From assembly GCA_036004985.1 (NCBI GenBank), contig DASYQX010000030.1, positions 4,151 through 68,150 of the forward strand: a DNA stretch of 64,000 nt. The letters run 5' to 3'. Within the stretch, counting starts at the first letter, position 1, and each line of letters starts with the position of its first letter. The DNA is from Gemmatimonadales bacterium. GTDB taxonomy: Bacteria > Gemmatimonadota > Gemmatimonadetes > Gemmatimonadales > GWC2-71-9. Below, one piece after another: positions 46,735 to 57,823 of the stretch. The notes under the pieces are model-generated. The model saw nothing but the letters and a program-made list of their open reading frames with translations, was not told the origin of the DNA and did no database searches. The translations under genes and the position numbers were made by a program.

Positions 46735-49878
<3,144 letters not shown>

Positions 49879-51063: not shown

Positions 51064-53367
51064 ATGATGCGTCGCCTGCTGCTCGCCTGCGTTCTCACCG
51101 CGACGTTGGGCGGCACGGTTGCCGCGCAGCGCGCCGCCCCCGCCGCCGACTCCACGCTGCTGACGGTGGATCGCATCTACGCCGGCGCCGAATTCCGCGG
51201 CGGCTCGTTCGGGCCGCTGGCGTGGCTCGGCGACGGATCGGCCTACACGACGCTCGAGCGCAGCGCGGAGACGAAAGACGGCCGCGACATCGTGCGCTAC
51301 GACGCGCAGACCGGGACGCGCTCGATTCTGGTGCCGGCGGCGCGCCTGATCCCGCCCGGTGATTCGGCGGCGCTCGACGTGGACGAGTACTCCTGGTCGG
51401 CGGACGGGAAGCGGCTGCTCGTCTTTACGAACACCGCTCAGGTGTGGCGCACGAACACGCGCGGCGATTACTGGGTGCTGGACCTCCAGACGTGGCGTCT
51501 CAAGAAGCTCGGCGGCTCTGGTCCAGCCTCGACGCTGATGTTCGCGAAGTTCTCGCCCGACGGGGGCCGGGTCGGCTGGGTGCGCTACGGCGAGTACAAC
51601 CTCTACGTCGAGGACCTCGCCACCGGCGCGATCACACCGCTCACCCGGGACGGCTCGCGCACCACGATCAACGGGACGTTCGACTGGGTGTACGAGGAGG
51701 AGCTGGGTCTGCAGGACGGCTGGCGCTGGAGTCCCGACGGTCAGGCGATCGCCTACTGGCAGCTCGACGCCACGGGCGTGCGCGACTTCCCGCTCTACAA
51801 CACCACCGACTCGCTCTACGCTTTCGAGATCCCGGTGCAGTATCCCAAGGCGGGACAGACTAACTCCGCCGGCCGCGTCGGCGTGGTGAGCGCGACGGGG
51901 GAGGGCGGTCCGACGCGCTGGATGCACGTGCCCGGGGATCCGCGCAACAACTACATCGCGCGGTTGGAGTGGGCGCCAGCAGCGGAGCGAGGAGCAGGGA
52001 GCAGGGAGCTCGTGATTCAGCACATGAATCGGCTCCAGAACACGATGCACGTGATGCTCGCCGACGCGCAGACGAGCGCGGTGCGAACGGTGTTCACCGA
52101 CCAGGACAGCGCCTGGGTCGAGCAGTTCGACGAGCTGACGTTCGTCAACCGGGGCCGCGACATCCTGTGGCTCTCGGAGCGGAGCGGGTGGAGCCATCTG
52201 TATCTGTTTCCCCGAGCCGGCGGCGCGCCGCGCGCCCTGACGAGCGGCGCGTTCGACGTCCTCGGCGTGCAGCGCGTGGACACGGCCGGCGGCTGGGTGT
52301 ATTACACGGCCTCGCCCGACAACCCGACGCAGCGCTACCTGTATCGCGTCAGCCTCACCCGGCGCGGCGCTCCACAGCGCGTGACGCCCGCTGGGGAATC
52401 GGGCGTGCACAGCTACAACGTGTCGCCGAACGGCCGGTACGCAGTGCACACCTACTCGCGGTTCGGCGTGCCGTCCACGACGACGCTGGTCGGCCTCCCG
52501 GAGCACCGCACCCTGCGCACGCTGGTGGACAATGCGGCGCTCAAGGCCAAGGTCGCCGGGCTGCGCCTGGGCGCGACCGAGTTCACGCAGGTGGACATCG
52601 GGGACGGCATCAAGCTCAACGCCTACTTGATCAAGCCGCCGGATTTCGACGCGACCAGGCGCTACCCGGTGTTTTTCACGGTGTACGGCGGGCCCGGCTC
52701 GCAGACCGTGATCGACGCGTGGGGCGGGGCCAACTATCTGTGGCACCAGATGCTGGCGCAGAAGGGGTACATCGTGGCCAGCGTGGACAACCGCGGCACC
52801 GGCGCGCGCGGGCGGGCGTGGCGCAAGATCGTGTACAAGCAGATGGGCGTGATCGAGACACGGGACCAGGCGGCCGCGGCGCGCGCCATCGGCCGCTTGC
52901 CGTACGTCGACTCCACGCGCCTCGGAATCTGGGGCTGGAGCTACGGCGGGTTCATGGCGCTGAACACGATCACGCAGCAACCCGACGTGTATCGGATGGC
53001 GATCGCGGTCGCGCCGGTGACGCACTGGAAGTACTACGATACGATCTACACCGAGCGGTACATGGGCCTGCCGCAGGACAACGCGGCCGGCTACGACAAG
53101 GGCTCACCGGTCACGTACGCCAAGAACCTGCGCGGCAAGTTACTGATCGTGCACGGCTCGGGTGACGACAACGTGCATTACCAGAACACCGAGGCGATGG
53201 TGAACGCGCTGGTGGCGGCGAACCGGCCGTTCCAGCTGATGGTGTACCCGAATCGCACGCACTCGATTTCGGGTGGGACGACACGGCAGCACTTGTTCAC
53301 GCTGCTGACGACGTTCGTGGAGGAGAATCTGCCGGCGACTGCGGGGACGAGGGCGGTGCTGCCTTAG
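51064..53367 (+). CDS. Dipeptidyl peptidase IV (S9B)
   Basis: DWVYEEE, YPKAG, VYGGP, GWSYGG, YDTIYTERY, HGSGDDNVH. Confidence 0.94.
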   Translation: MMRRLLLACVLTATLGGTVAAQRAAPAADSTLLTVDRIYAGAEFRGGSFGPLAWLGDGSAYTTLERSAETKDGRDIVRYDAQTGTRSILVPAARLIPPGDSAALDVDEYSWSADGKRLLVFTNTAQVWRTNTRGDYWVLDLQTWRLKKLGGSGPASTLMFAKFSPDGGRVGWVRYGEYNLYVEDLATGAITPLTRDGSRTTINGTFDWVYEEELGLQDGWRWSPDGQAIAYWQLDATGVRDFPLYNTTDSLYAFEIPVQYPKAGQTNSAGRVGVVSATGEGGPTRWMHVPGDPRNNYIARLEWAPAAERGAGSRELVIQHMNRLQNTMHVMLADAQTSAVRTVFTDQDSAWVEQFDELTFVNRGRDILWLSERSGWSHLYLFPRAGGAPRALTSGAFDVLGVQRVDTAGGWVYYTASPDNPTQRYLYRVSLTRRGAPQRVTPAGESGVHSYNVSPNGRYAVHTYSRFGVPSTTTLVGLPEHRTLRTLVDNAALKAKVAGLRLGATEFTQVDIGDGIKLNAYLIKPPDFDATRRYPVFFTVYGGPGSQTVIDAWGGANYLWHQMLAQKGYIVASVDNRGTGARGRAWRKIVYKQMGVIETRDQAAAARAIGRLPYVDSTRLGIWGWSYGGFMALNTITQQPDVYRMAIAVAPVTHWKYYDTIYTERYMGLPQDNAAGYDKGSPVTYAKNLRGKLLIVHGSGDDNVHYQNTEAMVNALVAANRPFQLMVYPNRTHSISGGTTRQHLFTLLTTFVEENLPATAGTRAVLP
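51983..52010 (+). repeat. In-frame heptamer repeat (GGGAGCA) inside the DPP IV gene
   Basis: cggagcg aggagca gggagca gggagct; same unit as 1274-1294. Confidence 0.7.
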
Positions 53368-54461
53368 CCCTTGCGCCGGCGCGGCCGCCGCCCCGACTCG
53401 GCCAGTTTCCAGAACTGTGCTTCTTTGATGACGGTGATCCGGTGCCCCAGTGCGGCGAGGCGCCGGATCTCCATCAGCTTGGTGCCGCCACCCGCACCGG
53501 CGATCTGCAGCCGGTTGGGCCGCCCGCGCACGAGCACATCGGTCGTGCGTCCGGGCTTCGAGTGCAGAATCGCGCCGGCTTTGCGGGCCGCGGCGATGGC
53601 CTCGCTGCGCGGACGGCTCAGGAACCCGGTGAAGGAGAGCCGCTTTCCCGCGAGACTCGCGACGCGGCCCACCGGCAGCTCCTTCGGACGTTGCCGCAGT
53701 GCCGCAATGAGCTCGCCGGCAGCCTCGTAGCGCCGGCCGCGGACCCCCAGACAGCGGTAAATGACCTCCTTCAAGTGGTCGCTGCACGGTAGGCCGCGGA
53801 CGTCGCGACTGCGCATGGGACTCGCGATGTCGCCGCGCAGCAGCATCGCCGCGAGCTGGCCGACCTGATAGATGTCGTCGCGCTGTTGCCACCGCCGGAT
53901 CCATCCCCACGCGATCTCCGTCGGCGCGTTGAGCGGATTGAAGGCGTCGGCGGTGACGCCCTGGCGATTCCGCTGGTGCCGGGCGATGCCGAAATCCCCC
54001 AGCTTGAGTTGCTCGTGCTCGCATACGAATACGTTGAACGGAGTGAGGTCGCGGTGCAGTGCCTGTCCGCGGTGCAGCGTATCGAGCGCTCCCAGGAGGG
54101 CTGCGATCTCGCGGCGCACGACGCGCTCGGGCTGTGGGCCACGGCGCTTGAGCCAAGCGCCCACGTCGCCGTGCTCCGCGTACTCCATCACGAGACAGTA
54201 GCGCATCCCGGTCCCGTCGGCCTCGGCGAACCGATCGAATACCCGGAGCGCGCGCGGCTCACGCTCGAGCAGCTCGGCGAAGTAAGCCTCGCGGAGCCAC
54301 GCCGTGAGACGATGGCTGATCTTGATGCAGACCTGCGCCGGCAGCCCGCCCGCGGGCGTCGGCGTCGCCAGGTAGACCTCGCCGAAGCCGCCCTTGCCGA
54401 TGAGGCGGTCCAGCCGGTAGGAGCGGCCGGTCTCGGAGCTATGGGGGGAGGGGTTCTCCAT
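53364..54461 (-). CDS. Soluble Ser/Thr protein kinase with a C-terminal BRCT domain
   Basis: IGKGGFGEVY, VCIK, HRDLTPFN, DFG, DDIYQVG; BRCT LAGKRLSFTG...GA...TDVLVRG...KL...ITVIKEAQF; no TM helix. Confidence 0.85.
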   Translation of the reverse strand: MENPSPHSSETGRSYRLDRLIGKGGFGEVYLATPTPAGGLPAQVCIKISHRLTAWLREAYFAELLEREPRALRVFDRFAEADGTGMRYCLVMEYAEHGDVGAWLKRRGPQPERVVRREIAALLGALDTLHRGQALHRDLTPFNVFVCEHEQLKLGDFGIARHQRNRQGVTADAFNPLNAPTEIAWGWIRRWQQRDDIYQVGQLAAMLLRGDIASPMRSRDVRGLPCSDHLKEVIYRCLGVRGRRYEAAGELIAALRQRPKELPVGRVASLAGKRLSFTGFLSRPRSEAIAAARKAGAILHSKPGRTTDVLVRGRPNRLQIAGAGGGTKLMEIRRLAALGHRITVIKEAQFWKLAESGRRPRRRKG

Positions 54462-54466
54462 GCGCA

Positions 54467-55525
54467 CTAGTTGCCGCGTGTCCGAGCCGCCGTCAAGCGA
54501 ACGGGAGCCAGCGTCACCGGCCCTCCAACGAACTTGCCGTAGGCACGGACGGCGGCATCGAGGGCTTTTGCCTCCACACCGTTGAGTGCACGCTTCAGAA
54601 CCATCTCGATGCGAATCGAGTTCCGTTTCGCGGTGGGCCTCCAATGCCCGACCAAACGACCATCGAGCAGCACAGCGTGGAAGAAGGGTGCGTCGCCCAG
54701 TCTAAACGAGTCGTCTCTGCTCTCGCTGTACGACATGATGATCTCGTCGTAACCCTGCACGAGGTCGACCGCCGGGGTCCTCGCGGTTCTCACGCCGCGG
54801 GATCCTTCGAACCAGTAGGTCCGGCCATCGACGACCTCACTCTCCAGTTCGCCGGCGACCGACGCCAGTCCGTCGCGGCCTTCAGTCGCCGTCAGGCTGG
54901 ACCAGCGCAGGAAGTCATTCAGGGTCGCCGGGCCACGGGACGTGAAATAGCGTCTCGTCAGCTCGGCCAACGCCGCGTCATAGTCGAGCGCCTTCGCATG
55001 GGGGGCTCGGTCGTCGAGCAGCGCGTAAGTGTGCTGCTTGCCCCGCATCGCGCCGCTGCACACGATGGCATCGAGCTCGGCACGCATGACGATGTACGCG
55101 AGTCTCGGACCACTCGCGCGGATCCCGGCACCCGCGAGCACGACTGCCAACTCCCGTCGGGTCAGGTGGGCTCCATCCCGCAACGCCTTGGCGATGAGCG
55201 AGTTGCACTTGGCGAAGACCTTGTTGTCGAGCTCGTGCTGCCGGTGGTAGTAGGCGTTCAAGGCGTGCACCCGTGGCGCCGTGACCTTGAGCAGCCAGCG
55301 GATGTCGTCGCCGAGCACGAAGTGCCACGTGGGTCGCAGCACATGCGTGCGTAATATCACGCCGTCCGCGAAGGCCTGCTCGACGTCGGCCCGCGTCGCT
55401 CCACGCGTGCGCTGCGCGACCGACCATTTGGCCAGCGGGAACTCCTGGGCCTGCAGCGCGGTCAGCCAGCGCACGACGTCTCGGGGGGTGTCAAAGCGCG
55501 TGCCCCAGAGACGCTGGGCGCGCAT
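54467..55525 (-). CDS. AlkZ-like (HTH_42) DNA glycosylase (alternative TTG start at 55555)
   Basis: Catalytic QxQ (ALQAQ), RTHVLRPTWHFV, LTRREL, RYFTSRGPAT..DF.RWS, YDE, VLLDGRLVGHW. Confidence 0.87.
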   Translation of the reverse strand: MRAQRLWGTRFDTPRDVVRWLTALQAQEFPLAKWSVAQRTRGATRADVEQAFADGVILRTHVLRPTWHFVLGDDIRWLLKVTAPRVHALNAYYHRQHELDNKVFAKCNSLIAKALRDGAHLTRRELAVVLAGAGIRASGPRLAYIVMRAELDAIVCSGAMRGKQHTYALLDDRAPHAKALDYDAALAELTRRYFTSRGPATLNDFLRWSSLTATEGRDGLASVAGELESEVVDGRTYWFEGSRGVRTARTPAVDLVQGYDEIIMSYSESRDDSFRLGDAPFFHAVLLDGRLVGHWRPTAKRNSIRIEMVLKRALNGVEAKALDAAVRAYGKFVGGPVTLAPVRLTAARTRGN

Positions 55526-55555
55526 GCGCAGTGGCGGGAGCGGAGGAACGGGCAA

Positions 55556-55626
55556 TTGGCCCCCTTGGATTCGAACCAAGATTACCGGATCCAAAGTCCG
55601 GTGTCCTGCCGTTGGACGAGGGGCCA
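55556..55626 (-). tRNA. tRNA-Gln (anticodon TTG), CCA not encoded
   Basis: TGGCCCC/GGGGCCA acceptor stem; CCGGA-CTTTGGA-TCCGG anticodon arm; CTTGG-TTCGAAT-CCAAG T arm. Confidence 0.95.
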
Positions 55627-55702
55627 GCGGCTGCTGCGACCATAAGCTAGCGAGTCCACCCCTCGCGGGGCAGCGGCGGCAGCCACGGCCCGCACCGGAC
55701 AG

Positions 55703-57823
55703 TTGCCCGTGCTCCCCCCAAGTGTTATCTGGTTAACGACCCGCTGGGGGGAGCCGGCCGTACACAAGGATAGTGGAGAGGCGGAACGCGCCTTCTGCGC
55801 ACGCTGCGGCGCGAGCCTGGGCACGGGTGCGTACTTCTGCCCGCGCTGCGGCACCAGCGTGCCCACCGCGGCGCGCGACGCCGTGACGGCCGTGTCCGTC
55901 CGCGGGTCCGACGCGGGCCGCGCGGCGCTGCTCGCGACACTGCGCCAGGCCACGCTGGGCGAATACGAGATCCTCACGGAATTGGGCCGCGGCGGCATGG
56001 CCACGGTGTACCTGGCGCACGACATCCCGCTCGATCGCAAAGTCGCGATCAAGGTGCTCGCCCCCGCCTTGCTCCTCATGGGCGAAGGCATGGTGGAGCG
56101 GTTCAAACGCGAGGCCCGGACGGCGGCCGCCCTGAGCCATCCCCACATCATTCCCATCTACGCGGTCAAGGAAAGCAACCGCGTCCTCTACTTCGTCATG
56201 AAGTACGTGCAGGGCCGGCCCCTCGACGCCGTCATCCGCGACGTTGGCCGCCTGCCGATCCCGATGGTGCAGGCCATCCTGGCTCACGTGGGCGACGCGC
56301 TCGCGTACGCGCATCGGCACGGCGTCATCCATCGGGACATCAAGTCGGCCAACATCATGCTCGACGAAGAGGGCTGGGCGGTCGTCACCGACTTCGGCAT
56401 CGCCAAGGTCGAGGAAGCTCAGGGGCTCACGCTGACCGGCGTGACGGTTGGGACGCCCACGTACATGAGCCCGGAACAATGCGCCACGTGCGAAGTCACC
56501 GGCGCCTCGGATCAGTATTCGCTCGGCGTCGTGGCGTACGAGATGCTCACGGGCCGCCTGCCGTTCCGGAGCGAGTCGACGATGTCCGTGATGTACGCGC
56601 ACTTCAACGAGCGCCCGCAGCCCGTGAGCGAGCTGCGACCCGACTGCCCCCCTAACCTCGCGGCCGCCGTCATGCGGATGCTGGAGAAGGAGCCGGAGGA
56701 TCGCTGGCCCACGATGGAGGACGTGGTGGCCGTGTGCGGGAGACCCTCGCTGCGGCACGACGACCCCATCCGCAGCGACATGATTACCCTGGCGAAAGCC
56801 GGCGGCGCGGCGCAGCTGCTCGCCGACATCAACACGCCGACCAGCCCGATCGCACTGGCCAAGGTGCCGACACGCCCACTCGCGCCCGCGCGTCGTCGGG
56901 TCTCCCCCCTGTGGTGGGGACTCGGCGTGGTCGGGATCGCCGCTGCCCTGTGGTGGACGGCGCCGTGGCGCTTGCTGCGGTCGTCGCCCCCGGCTGTGGT
57001 TGGCACCCTCCCCGCCCCGGGCCGGGCCGCGCCCTCCGCCGTGCCGGCGGAGACGGCCGCGGTCCGGCCGCCGCCACCCGCCCCACCCACCGCCGACTCG
57101 ACGGCCCCAGTGCAGGCGACGCGGCCGCCGAGCCGCCGTCTCAGTCGCACCGCCGCGCCGAGCGCGCTGGCAGGCGCCGGAGCCGCGGCGGAATCCGTGC
57201 TCCGAGCGGCAACCGCGCGTCAAGAAGACAGCCTCGTGCGCTCCATGCGGACCACGGCGCTCGCCGCGATGCAGCGGGCGGTCGGGGCCGGGGCAACGCC
57301 GGCGGAGCTGGCACGCGGGGACACGGTGTTGCGGGGGGCGGAATCGCTCGCGGCTGCGGGCCGGCTGTCCGAGGCGATGGTCCAGTTCGTCACGGCCACG
57401 TCTCTCTGGTCTGAAGGCGAGCGTCTGTCGCGGGCACGGGCGGCGCGCGACGCCGCGCCCCCCCCCCCCGTCGGCGCGCCTCCTCCCGCTCCGGTTGACC
57501 CGCGCCCGGCGATCGAGTCGGTGATCGCGGAGTACGCGCGCGCGCTCGAATCGCGCGACCTGAGCCAGGTGCGCCGGGCCTATCCAGGGCTCACGGCCGC
57601 GCAGCAACAAGGATGGCAGGATCTGTTCAGGTCGGTGCGCAGGCTCAAGGCCAGCTTGACCGTCACGACGCTGAACGCGACGGGCGCGACCGCCGAGGCG
57701 ACGGTGAGCGGCGTCTACGAGTTCGAGTATTCCACGACGGGCCGGACGGAGCGGCGTCCGGCAGCGTTCCGAGCCACGTTGGTCGCGGACTCCGCCGGCT
57801 GGCGGCTCAGCGCTATCCGCTAG
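55703..57823 (+). CDS. Zinc-ribbon Ser/Thr kinase with TM helix, Pro-rich linker and C-terminal NTF2-like domain (start uncertain)
   Basis: CARC..CPRC; LGRGGM, VAIK, HRDIKSAN, DFG, GTPTYMSPE; TM PLWWGLGVVGIAAALWW; C-terminal IESVIAEYARALESRD. Confidence 0.88.
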   Translation: MPVLPPSVIWLTTRWGEPAVHKDSGEAERAFCARCGASLGTGAYFCPRCGTSVPTAARDAVTAVSVRGSDAGRAALLATLRQATLGEYEILTELGRGGMATVYLAHDIPLDRKVAIKVLAPALLLMGEGMVERFKREARTAAALSHPHIIPIYAVKESNRVLYFVMKYVQGRPLDAVIRDVGRLPIPMVQAILAHVGDALAYAHRHGVIHRDIKSANIMLDEEGWAVVTDFGIAKVEEAQGLTLTGVTVGTPTYMSPEQCATCEVTGASDQYSLGVVAYEMLTGRLPFRSESTMSVMYAHFNERPQPVSELRPDCPPNLAAAVMRMLEKEPEDRWPTMEDVVAVCGRPSLRHDDPIRSDMITLAKAGGAAQLLADINTPTSPIALAKVPTRPLAPARRRVSPLWWGLGVVGIAAALWWTAPWRLLRSSPPAVVGTLPAPGRAAPSAVPAETAAVRPPPPAPPTADSTAPVQATRPPSRRLSRTAAPSALAGAGAAAESVLRAATARQEDSLVRSMRTTALAAMQRAVGAGATPAELARGDTVLRGAESLAAAGRLSEAMVQFVTATSLWSEGERLSRARAARDAAPPPPVGAPPPAPVDPRPAIESVIAEYARALESRDLSQVRRAYPGLTAAQQQGWQDLFRSVRRLKASLTVTTLNATGATAEATVSGVYEFEYSTTGRTERRPAAFRATLVADSAGWRLSAIR

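Follow-up and report, generated by a model that had tools for sequence, protein, structure and literature searches.

The question raised by this locus is what a soluble protein kinase ending in a DNA ligase-type BRCT domain does directly behind a gene for a DNA glycosylase of the AlkZ kind. The window is a stretch of 64,000 nucleotides from a Gemmatimonadales bacterium (assembly GCA_036004985.1, contig DASYQX010000030.1, positions 4,151 to 68,150), in whose own numbering all unprefixed positions are given. On its minus strand three co-oriented genes follow one another: tRNA-Gln(TTG) (55556..55626, called by ARAGORN, CCA not encoded, the genome's single copy of this tRNA), an AlkZ-like glycosylase of the HTH_42 family (54467..55555, 362 aa from a TTG) and a kinase-BRCT fusion of 365 aa (53364..54461). 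Open reading frame (ORF), tRNA and domain calls agree here with an earlier sequence-only reading, which had described a co-oriented tRNA-Gln, HTH_42 glycosylase and Hanks-type kinase free of transmembrane segments. Eukaryotic damage signalling involves cooperation between kinases and BRCT domains that belong to separate proteins. The explanation that we favour, and consider on balance probable, is a self-standing kinase, likely activated by DNA in the manner of Bacillus subtilis YabT and loosely tied to repair genes. The kinase-BRCT gene would be a unit of its own, likely with its own promoter; the BRCT domain would bind a DNA discontinuity and so localise or activate the kinase, which, by analogy with YabT, may phosphorylate DNA-repair or cell-cycle proteins. 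The AlkZ-like glycosylase would act upstream and independently of the kinase, unhooking crosslinks and leaving abasic sites for base-excision repair. Such abasic sites or nicks are what a sensor of this kind could read, and AlkZ would have been placed beside the kinase several times, probably since both help under the same genotoxic stress.

The kinase domain (about residues 15-258, 53688..54419, minus strand, delimited by an alignment of 62 sequences and a match to Mycobacterium tuberculosis PknB) matches Pkinase with an E-value of 3e-22. K47, E58, H136, D138, N143, D156, G158 and D196 (the alphaF Asp) do not vary in any of the 62 homologues, which range down to 31% identity, and R244, the Arg of subdomain XI, is kept in at least 90% of them; the Gly-rich loop, the VAIK Lys, the alphaC Glu, the HRD Asp, the catalytic-loop Asn, the DFG motif and the C-lobe that mark the Hanks-type eukaryotic protein kinase (ePK) fold are all present. 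Since the catalytic residues are invariant across the homologues an active enzyme is likely, and the highest 19-residue hydropathy of the fusion, only 0.71, argues that it has no membrane helix; we predict an active cytoplasmic enzyme of the Ser/Thr type. The two-domain structure model built from the 62-sequence alignment is confident across both domains (pLDDT 95.7, pTM 0.92) and supersedes an earlier, poor model from 27 close sequences (pLDDT 59); its best structural match is PknB (1mru, Z 26.0, rmsd 2.5, 236 residues aligned). Canonical Ser/Thr kinases carry the motifs HRD(L/V)KPxN and GT(P/A). In this family the site of the catalytic-loop Lys (position 140) holds Thr in 53, Lys in 6 and Ser in 3 of the 62 proteins, and the site of the GT Thr (position 175) holds Asn in 44 and Thr in 6; the two positions differ together, and both determinants of Ser/Thr specificity (HRDxKxxN Lys, GT Thr) are thereby lacking in most members. 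As far as alignment can tell, these residues lower the case for ordinary Ser/Thr specificity and leave the status of protein kinase intact. Both motifs for which the kinase had been called atypical, HRDLTPFN and NAPTE, are present as described, but the Glu of NAPTE occupies the usual register of the Glu in APE; what sets the protein apart is the Thr that replaces Lys in the catalytic loop and the Asn that stands where GT has its Thr. The gene is under purifying selection, with 105 silent and 40 amino-acid codon changes in 358 codons against its relative in locus L028.

The C-terminal domain (about residues 270-353, 53403..53654, minus strand, pI 12) had been read as a single BRCT domain of the LigA/RFC1 type, an assignment that is weak for the protein alone and firm for the family. 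In the single protein PF00533 stays below its cut-off (E 0.013) and the BRCT domain of Thermus thermophilus ligase (1l7b) matches at E 0.003, whereas in several homologues PF00533 rises above the cut-off (best E 3e-8). Additionally, a profile of the family's C-terminal domain finds the BRCT domain of the source genome's own LigA at E 6e-9 and the match is reciprocal, LigA's being the closest relative in that genome. The modelled domain has four strands and three helices; fold searches with the whole model were filled by kinase-domain matches. T278 (59/62), G279 (57/62), R285 (55/62) and K328 (60/62) are conserved, as are G296, G313 and G326, and the domain is basic in all 62 homologues, with a net charge of +4 to +18. 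The equivalents of the T-G, Arg and Lys residues in RFC1 presumably bind DNA phosphate. A basic LigA-type BRCT domain of this kind likely binds nicked, gapped or broken DNA. On the other hand, the high confidence of the whole model fits a fixed kinase-BRCT arrangement, and the high pTM could mean that the BRCT domain packs on the kinase as a fixed subunit. This would suit a rival explanation that we consider unlikely without dismissing it, in which the protein has no role in DNA damage, its BRCT domain being a regulatory, nucleoid-tethering or protein-binding module and its place beside AlkZ reflecting shared descent and co-residence in an accessory region. The T-G, R and G-x-K residues that the domain shares with LigA argue against it.

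As for the range of the fusion, 29 of 37 genomes of the genus have it and, patchily, 33 of 351 genomes of the phylum do, at 70-96% identity except for one member at 40%; in the phylum of genome G388 (Acidobacteriota by label) 16 of 351 genomes carry it, and it reaches Actinomycetota. Close relatives of the kinase carry Gemmatimonadales labels, a search of 50% clusters returned dozens of divergent full-length kinase-BRCT proteins, and a metagenome scan gave at least three short family loci. No further member was found on re-sampling Gemmatimonadota, and among 251 genomes of the phylum of G389 the only match was in G389 itself. By sequence, the kinase-BRCT proteins form one conserved family that spans Gemmatimonadales, Acidobacteriota and Actinomycetota. 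Gemmatimonadales-type loci also occur in assemblies labelled Chloroflexi (L025, G389), Burkholderiales (L066, G391) and Thermoanaerobaculia (L079, G388), for which mis-binning is likelier than transfer because L025 keeps the tRNA-Gln context. Six of eight long kinase-BRCT proteins scanned have an N-terminal TY-Chap3 domain, and a three-domain TY-Chap3-kinase-BRCT subfamily can be delimited (P0136, P0140, P0144, P0147, P0148, P0153 and P0275-P0298, some labelled Bryobacteraceae). As a predicted peptide chaperone, TY-Chap3 points to protein clients in these relatives, a point in favour of a protein with no part in DNA damage.

At the upstream end of the locus, the alkZ frame opens with a TTG at 55555, the base directly after the discriminator A of the tRNA, just as the sequence-only reading had noted. 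This TTG is the likely start because, in a codon-by-codon alignment, the ATG of the orthologue in genome G003 coincides with it; in L028 a CTG stands at this position. At the downstream end five bases (TGCGC) separate the TAG of alkZ from the ATG of the kinase at 54461, the spacing noted before. The last 31 bases of alkZ form an element CTTGACn-N17-CAAnTAG (54467..54497, minus strand), which takes in the alkZ stop, so that the last 12 alkZ codons run through it, and which ends 5 nt before the kinase ATG. Five close loci without alkZ carry this element as well, 5-6 nt ahead of the kinase ATG, and it precedes 27 of 115 kinase loci in both families (shuffles: mean 0.6, maximum 4), a figure that is optimistic because the pattern was drawn from the sequences in which it was then counted. 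When the source genome is scanned with it, the kinase site scores best; other members have an ordinary TAnnnT hexamer shortly before the kinase start. The three co-oriented alkZ genes enter the element at different points, and it travels with the kinase and not with alkZ. The most plausible reading is that it would serve the kinase as a promoter of its own and give a nearly leaderless message. Since it precedes the kinase with or without alkZ, transcription of alkZ could start at the promoter of the tRNA and that of the kinase at this element, possibly with some read-through, and the 5-nt gap is explained by the kinase's upstream element sitting inside the 3' end of alkZ.

Four other accounts of this arrangement were rejected. 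An operon with translational coupling was set aside because the gap and the alkZ stop are both part of an element that is also kept ahead of the kinase where alkZ is missing, and a remnant of a deleted alkZ was dropped since the element also lies upstream of kinases in distant clades. A regulon motif found no support: no convincing second site exists in the source genome, and 36 matches in 151 genomes of the family are no more than the reversed control gives, three of the 30 retrieved being kinase genes. An element integrated at tRNA-Gln was likewise rejected, since the tRNA end is not duplicated in the genome or in nine related loci, no integrase occurs among the neighbours, and third-position GC content (GC3) is only slightly low (alkZ 0.82, kinase 0.86, neighbours 0.88-0.92). 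A scan with the sigma-70 consensus found nothing. In three relatives (L021:5925-6010, L027:5897-5990 and L029:5863-5950) the kinase ATG lies 5-9 nt behind the 3' end of tRNA-Gln and the upstream element is gone. From these kinases close behind the tRNA, and from the TTG and CTG starts of alkZ flush with the tRNA here and in L028, processing of the tRNA might release leaderless messages. A Uma2-family gene occupies the slot between tRNA-Gln and the kinase in L022:5207-5761 and L025:2193-2741, where the source genome has alkZ. In a soil run containing relatives only, one contig joins the tRNA to the kinase without alkZ, which amounts to a weak hint.

The glycosylase itself is well placed in its family. 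The ORF matches PF06224 over its whole length (E 5e-53) and AlkZ (5uuj) at E 2e-11, and its residues Q35-A36-Q37 (55445..55453, minus strand) are in register with the catalytic QAQ of AlkZ, in line with the QxQ motif that had been recognised from the sequence; this Q-Phi-Q motif is invariant in 25 of 25 aligned AlkZ-like proteins. According to the excerpted text of PMC9040887, (Q/H)-Phi-Q and not Q-Phi-D defines the AZL-type HTH_42 glycosylases, and by that definition the predicted protein is AZL-type. The gene is under purifying selection, with 107 silent and 102 amino-acid codon changes in 350 codons against L028.

Whether the two genes form a dedicated pair can be judged from other genomes. 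In the genus 14 genomes have both, within 5 kb of each other in 12; G009, one of the two unlinked cases, and G018, one of two genomes with AlkZ only, are unpublished genomes. Of 27 further kinase genomes nine have AlkZ, three of them within 5 kb, which brings Gemmatimonadales to 15 of 23 genomes with both genes, against about 0.4% for random placement. Of 104 distinct loci of the Gemmatimonadales type, 13 have AlkZ as the adjacent gene and 18 have it within 5 kb. All these linkage and neighbour counts include related genomes that are not independent of one another. By kinase group, AlkZ is adjacent in 4 of 17 and no other low-copy family in more than two, a count from which the top two rows (short antisense frames inside the kinase gene) were discarded and the 40%-identical G106 locus was excluded. 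This difference speaks against mere co-residence and hence against a protein with no role in damage, as does a probability of about 8e-4 for three or more adjacencies if accessory genes make up 5% of the genome (AlkZ being a family chosen post hoc). The enrichment of AlkZ or repair genes beside kinase-BRCT homologues, on which the sequence-only reading had made its proposal depend, thus exists.

The linkage does not have the form expected of an obligate pair. In the linked loci alkZ lies upstream and co-oriented in 3, divergent in 10, downstream and adjacent in 1 and downstream at 3.6-4.6 kb in 4, so that there is no single conserved gene order. The linked AlkZ proteins form three clades plus an isolated row, the gene order differing from one to the next, and unlinked AlkZ proteins from other genomes are interspersed among them. 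The linked kinases fall into three separate clades and one outlier; a single clade of linked kinases is rejected (AU p 3e-49, with groups named after a tree had been seen), and the linkage state changes at least 10 times, by gain or loss, on the kinase tree. The simpler reading of these trees is that AlkZ was paired with the kinase repeatedly, in three or four separate pairings; an old linkage followed by many losses and rearrangements is the less simple alternative. Searches failed to find AlkZ in 33 of the 56 kinase genomes (in 27 of the 41 whose completeness is 90% or more), that is, the partner is present in 23 of 56 and not in most. In the closest clade alkZ is present at 3 of 11 loci, the kinase lies directly behind tRNA-Gln at 5 and a Uma2 gene fills the slot at 2.

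A dedicated two-gene module, in which tRNA-Gln, alkZ and the kinase would share one transcript and the kinase, as an obligate partner of AlkZ, would signal from the abasic or nicked intermediates that AlkZ makes, is therefore quite improbable. It has on its side the co-orientation with a 5-nt gap here and in two relatives, the rank of AlkZ as top recurrent neighbour, divergent start codons that can be less than 30 nt apart around one -10-like hexamer, and the greater frequency of alkZ in kinase-positive genomes (23/56 against 6/38, and 11/15 against 5/20, uncorrected for kinship and genome size). Against it stand the missing AlkZ in those 33 genomes, the 8 of 11 closest loci without alkZ, two of them with Uma2 in its place, the identity of the gap with the kinase's own upstream element, the many gains or losses on the tree and the unlinked acidobacterial genomes described below. 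The operon implied by the sequence-only reading accordingly finds no support, with no AlkZ found in most kinase genomes, a divergent arrangement as the commonest linked form and an element of the kinase's own; the association between AlkZ and the kinase is probably a loose one, without the fixity of a two-gene system. At L101, L106, L110 and L113 the divergent starts surround a TAGATT hexamer, resembling a compact two-way promoter.

Regulation by the SOS response was approached through the lexA promoters of five genomes, which share TTCGG repeats. In the source genome TTCGG-N6-TTCGG precedes lexA, recA, two IMS-family genes (dinB and imuB-like), lhr and a radical-SAM gene, at sites outside the window (G000:C109:15057-15084, C79:11276, C58:118156, C49:7085, C35:2824 and 6460; also L374-L378). 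The bare pattern does not exceed shuffles in that genome (10 against 6-9), but with an A/T-rich spacer it gives 28 matches in five other genomes against 0 in the reversed control. The direct repeat TTCGG-(A/T-rich N6)-TTCGG is thus likely, as a pattern, to be the LexA box of Gemmatimonadales, a useful by-product of the analysis.

With this box in hand, the observations that weigh against our favoured explanation can be taken together. The box is absent from 53301-55900 even with one mismatch allowed, and upstream of the 115 kinase loci it occurs 0 times exactly and 4 times with one mismatch, against 2.7 expected, so that the kinase gene is probably not damage-induced via LexA. A constitutive sensor would need no SOS box, yet its absence removes one support for a damage role. 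AlkZ is present in 11 of 15 acidobacterial kinase genomes searched, nowhere nearer than 33 kb (0 of 11 linked within 30 kb), so that linkage above chance where both genes occur is seen in Gemmatimonadales and is absent from the phylum of G388. Most neighbours of the kinase are unrelated to DNA, being mostly metabolic and transport genes that vary widely, and within 5 kb glycerol kinase recurs in 4 and a 3-keto-disaccharide hydrolase family in 5 kinase groups; since such unrelated low-copy genes recur as often as AlkZ at that distance, part of the AlkZ signal is regional clustering of accessory genes. A link to repair genes is favoured by a stand-alone LigD-type primase-polymerase within 5 kb at 11 of 104 loci and an ATP-dependent ligase at 3 loci, all in a separate kinase clade, but because it is confined to one clade the primase-polymerase link counts as one event; the LigD-type primase-polymerase domain occurs somewhere in 52 of 55 kinase genomes. 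The missing SOS-type box, the mainly metabolic and transport neighbours and the equal recurrence of glycerol kinase and other unrelated genes at 5 kb are also points in favour of a protein with no damage role.

A stronger form of the self-standing kinase is a damage checkpoint independent of LexA and widespread in soil bacteria, in which the BRCT domain, derived from a ligase, would directly read repair intermediates (abasic sites, nicks, 5'-phosphate ends) and the kinase would phosphorylate excision-repair or division proteins; we hold this tentatively, as possible and not as probable. Were it true, AlkZ and the primase-polymerase and ATP-ligase neighbours would mark the kinase as the signalling arm of glycosylase-initiated repair, and HRDLTPxN with AFNP would give it a substrate preference unlike that of known bacterial kinases.

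Some neighbouring features belong to the setting of the locus. On one side it adjoins a divergent gene for an unrelated Ser/Thr kinase, on the other a convergent gene for a dipeptidyl peptidase. The window has two further Ser/Thr kinases, a zinc-ribbon-kinase (55703-57823, plus strand) and a kinase-TPR protein (46735-49878, plus strand), which belong to the approximately 31 kinase ORFs of the genome and are not close to kinase-BRCT. AlkZ lies a few kb from a LigD-type primase-polymerase without kinase-BRCT at G006:C143:1134-3569 and G321:C3:522952-526974, hinting at a wider AlkZ/primase-polymerase neighbourhood. In a single acidobacterial case kinase-BRCT is followed on the same strand, after about 1.6 kb, by a gene for an lhr helicase (L333:3643-5142, G670).

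The sequence-only reading had also raised an anti-phage abortive module, and a kinase that senses the ends of foreign phage or plasmid DNA through its BRCT domain and arrests growth is the least probable of the readings considered. Its patchy presence in the phylum would suit such a role, the PADLOC kinase models do match it, and the excerpted text of PMC9503650 predicts that the TY-Chap3 domain acts as a peptide chaperone within systems directed against viral ADP-ribosylation. However, the PADLOC matches are largely confined to the kinase core, neither they nor the NCBIfam matches (with scores far below their cut-offs) extend into the BRCT domain, and the kinase-based systems MADS, PD-T4-6, BREX PglW and Mokosh gave no full-length match and no partner genes among the scanned neighbours. 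Among 264 neighbour proteins (47 + 137 + 80) no defence families were found except the Uma2 family and one PIN gene, both loosely conflict-related; no full-length kinase-BRCT protein occurred in the viral contigs or plasmids searched, and neither of the two 40%-identity members seen in context lies in a defence island. Identities of 70-96% across two families would also be slow evolution for a defence gene, and the neighbourhoods examined lend the module no support.

A response to DNA is known for few kinases of bacteria, YabT and Deinococcus radiodurans RqkA among them, and none with a BRCT domain was found in the literature searched. That literature yielded no described bacterial kinase-BRCT fusion and no kinase-AlkZ pair, in agreement with the statement of the sequence-only reading that none is characterised; supplementary architecture tables, which lay outside the search, could list the fusion. 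The novelty is a Hanks kinase, probably associated with DNA, whose sensor domain is new and whose specificity residues are altered, and what is new at the source locus is a repeated, optional link with AlkZ, a putative internal promoter and absence from the SOS regulon. A single-chain bacterial kinase-BRCT protein in abundant soil phyla would offer a simple and testable model of damage signalling, and the recurring AlkZ and primase-polymerase/ligase neighbours point to the first lesions and substrates to try.

Compared with known systems, the glycosylase is like AlkZ and the AZL proteins (5uuj; PMC9040887) in its full-length PF06224 match, its Q-Phi-Q motif and its variable neighbourhood and copy number; as a difference, its neighbours give no sign of a biosynthetic cluster, and its lesion specificity is a prediction. 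No Ser/Thr kinase neighbour of AZL genes is described in the excerpts of PMC9040887. The catalytic domain of PknB (1mru) offers the best likeness in fold, but the protein here has neither membrane helix nor PASTA repeats, and it carries HRDLTPxN and AFNP instead of HRD(L/V)KPxN and GT(P/A). The BRCT domain resembles that of LigA (1l7b), a single BRCT domain with the same T-G, R, G-A and G-x-K residues, and differs from it by its fusion to a kinase and a short insertion before G-x-K, its DNA binding being predicted. The usual bacterial BRCT proteins named in the excerpted part of a review are only the ligase and the Pol III epsilon subunit, and LigA without its BRCT domain loses nick-joining efficiency (PMC10386641). 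RqkA is a damage-responsive Ser/Thr kinase that acts on repair and cell-division proteins outside LexA/RecA (bioRxiv 10.1101/2020.04.06.028845; PMC6052341); its C-terminal domain is, according to those excerpts, a WD40-type propeller and not a BRCT domain, and the source genome here has LexA and a putative SOS regulon. The closest working model is YabT, a Hanks-type kinase of B. subtilis that is activated by DNA, phosphorylates RecA and is needed for resistance to DNA damage in sporulation (PMC3708118; PMC4754617). YabT is putatively transmembrane and sporulation-specific, its DNA-binding stretch spans residues 230-315 and the excerpted texts mention no BRCT domain, whereas the kinase described here is soluble, would act on substrates proposed by analogy and would probably contact DNA through its C-terminal BRCT domain.

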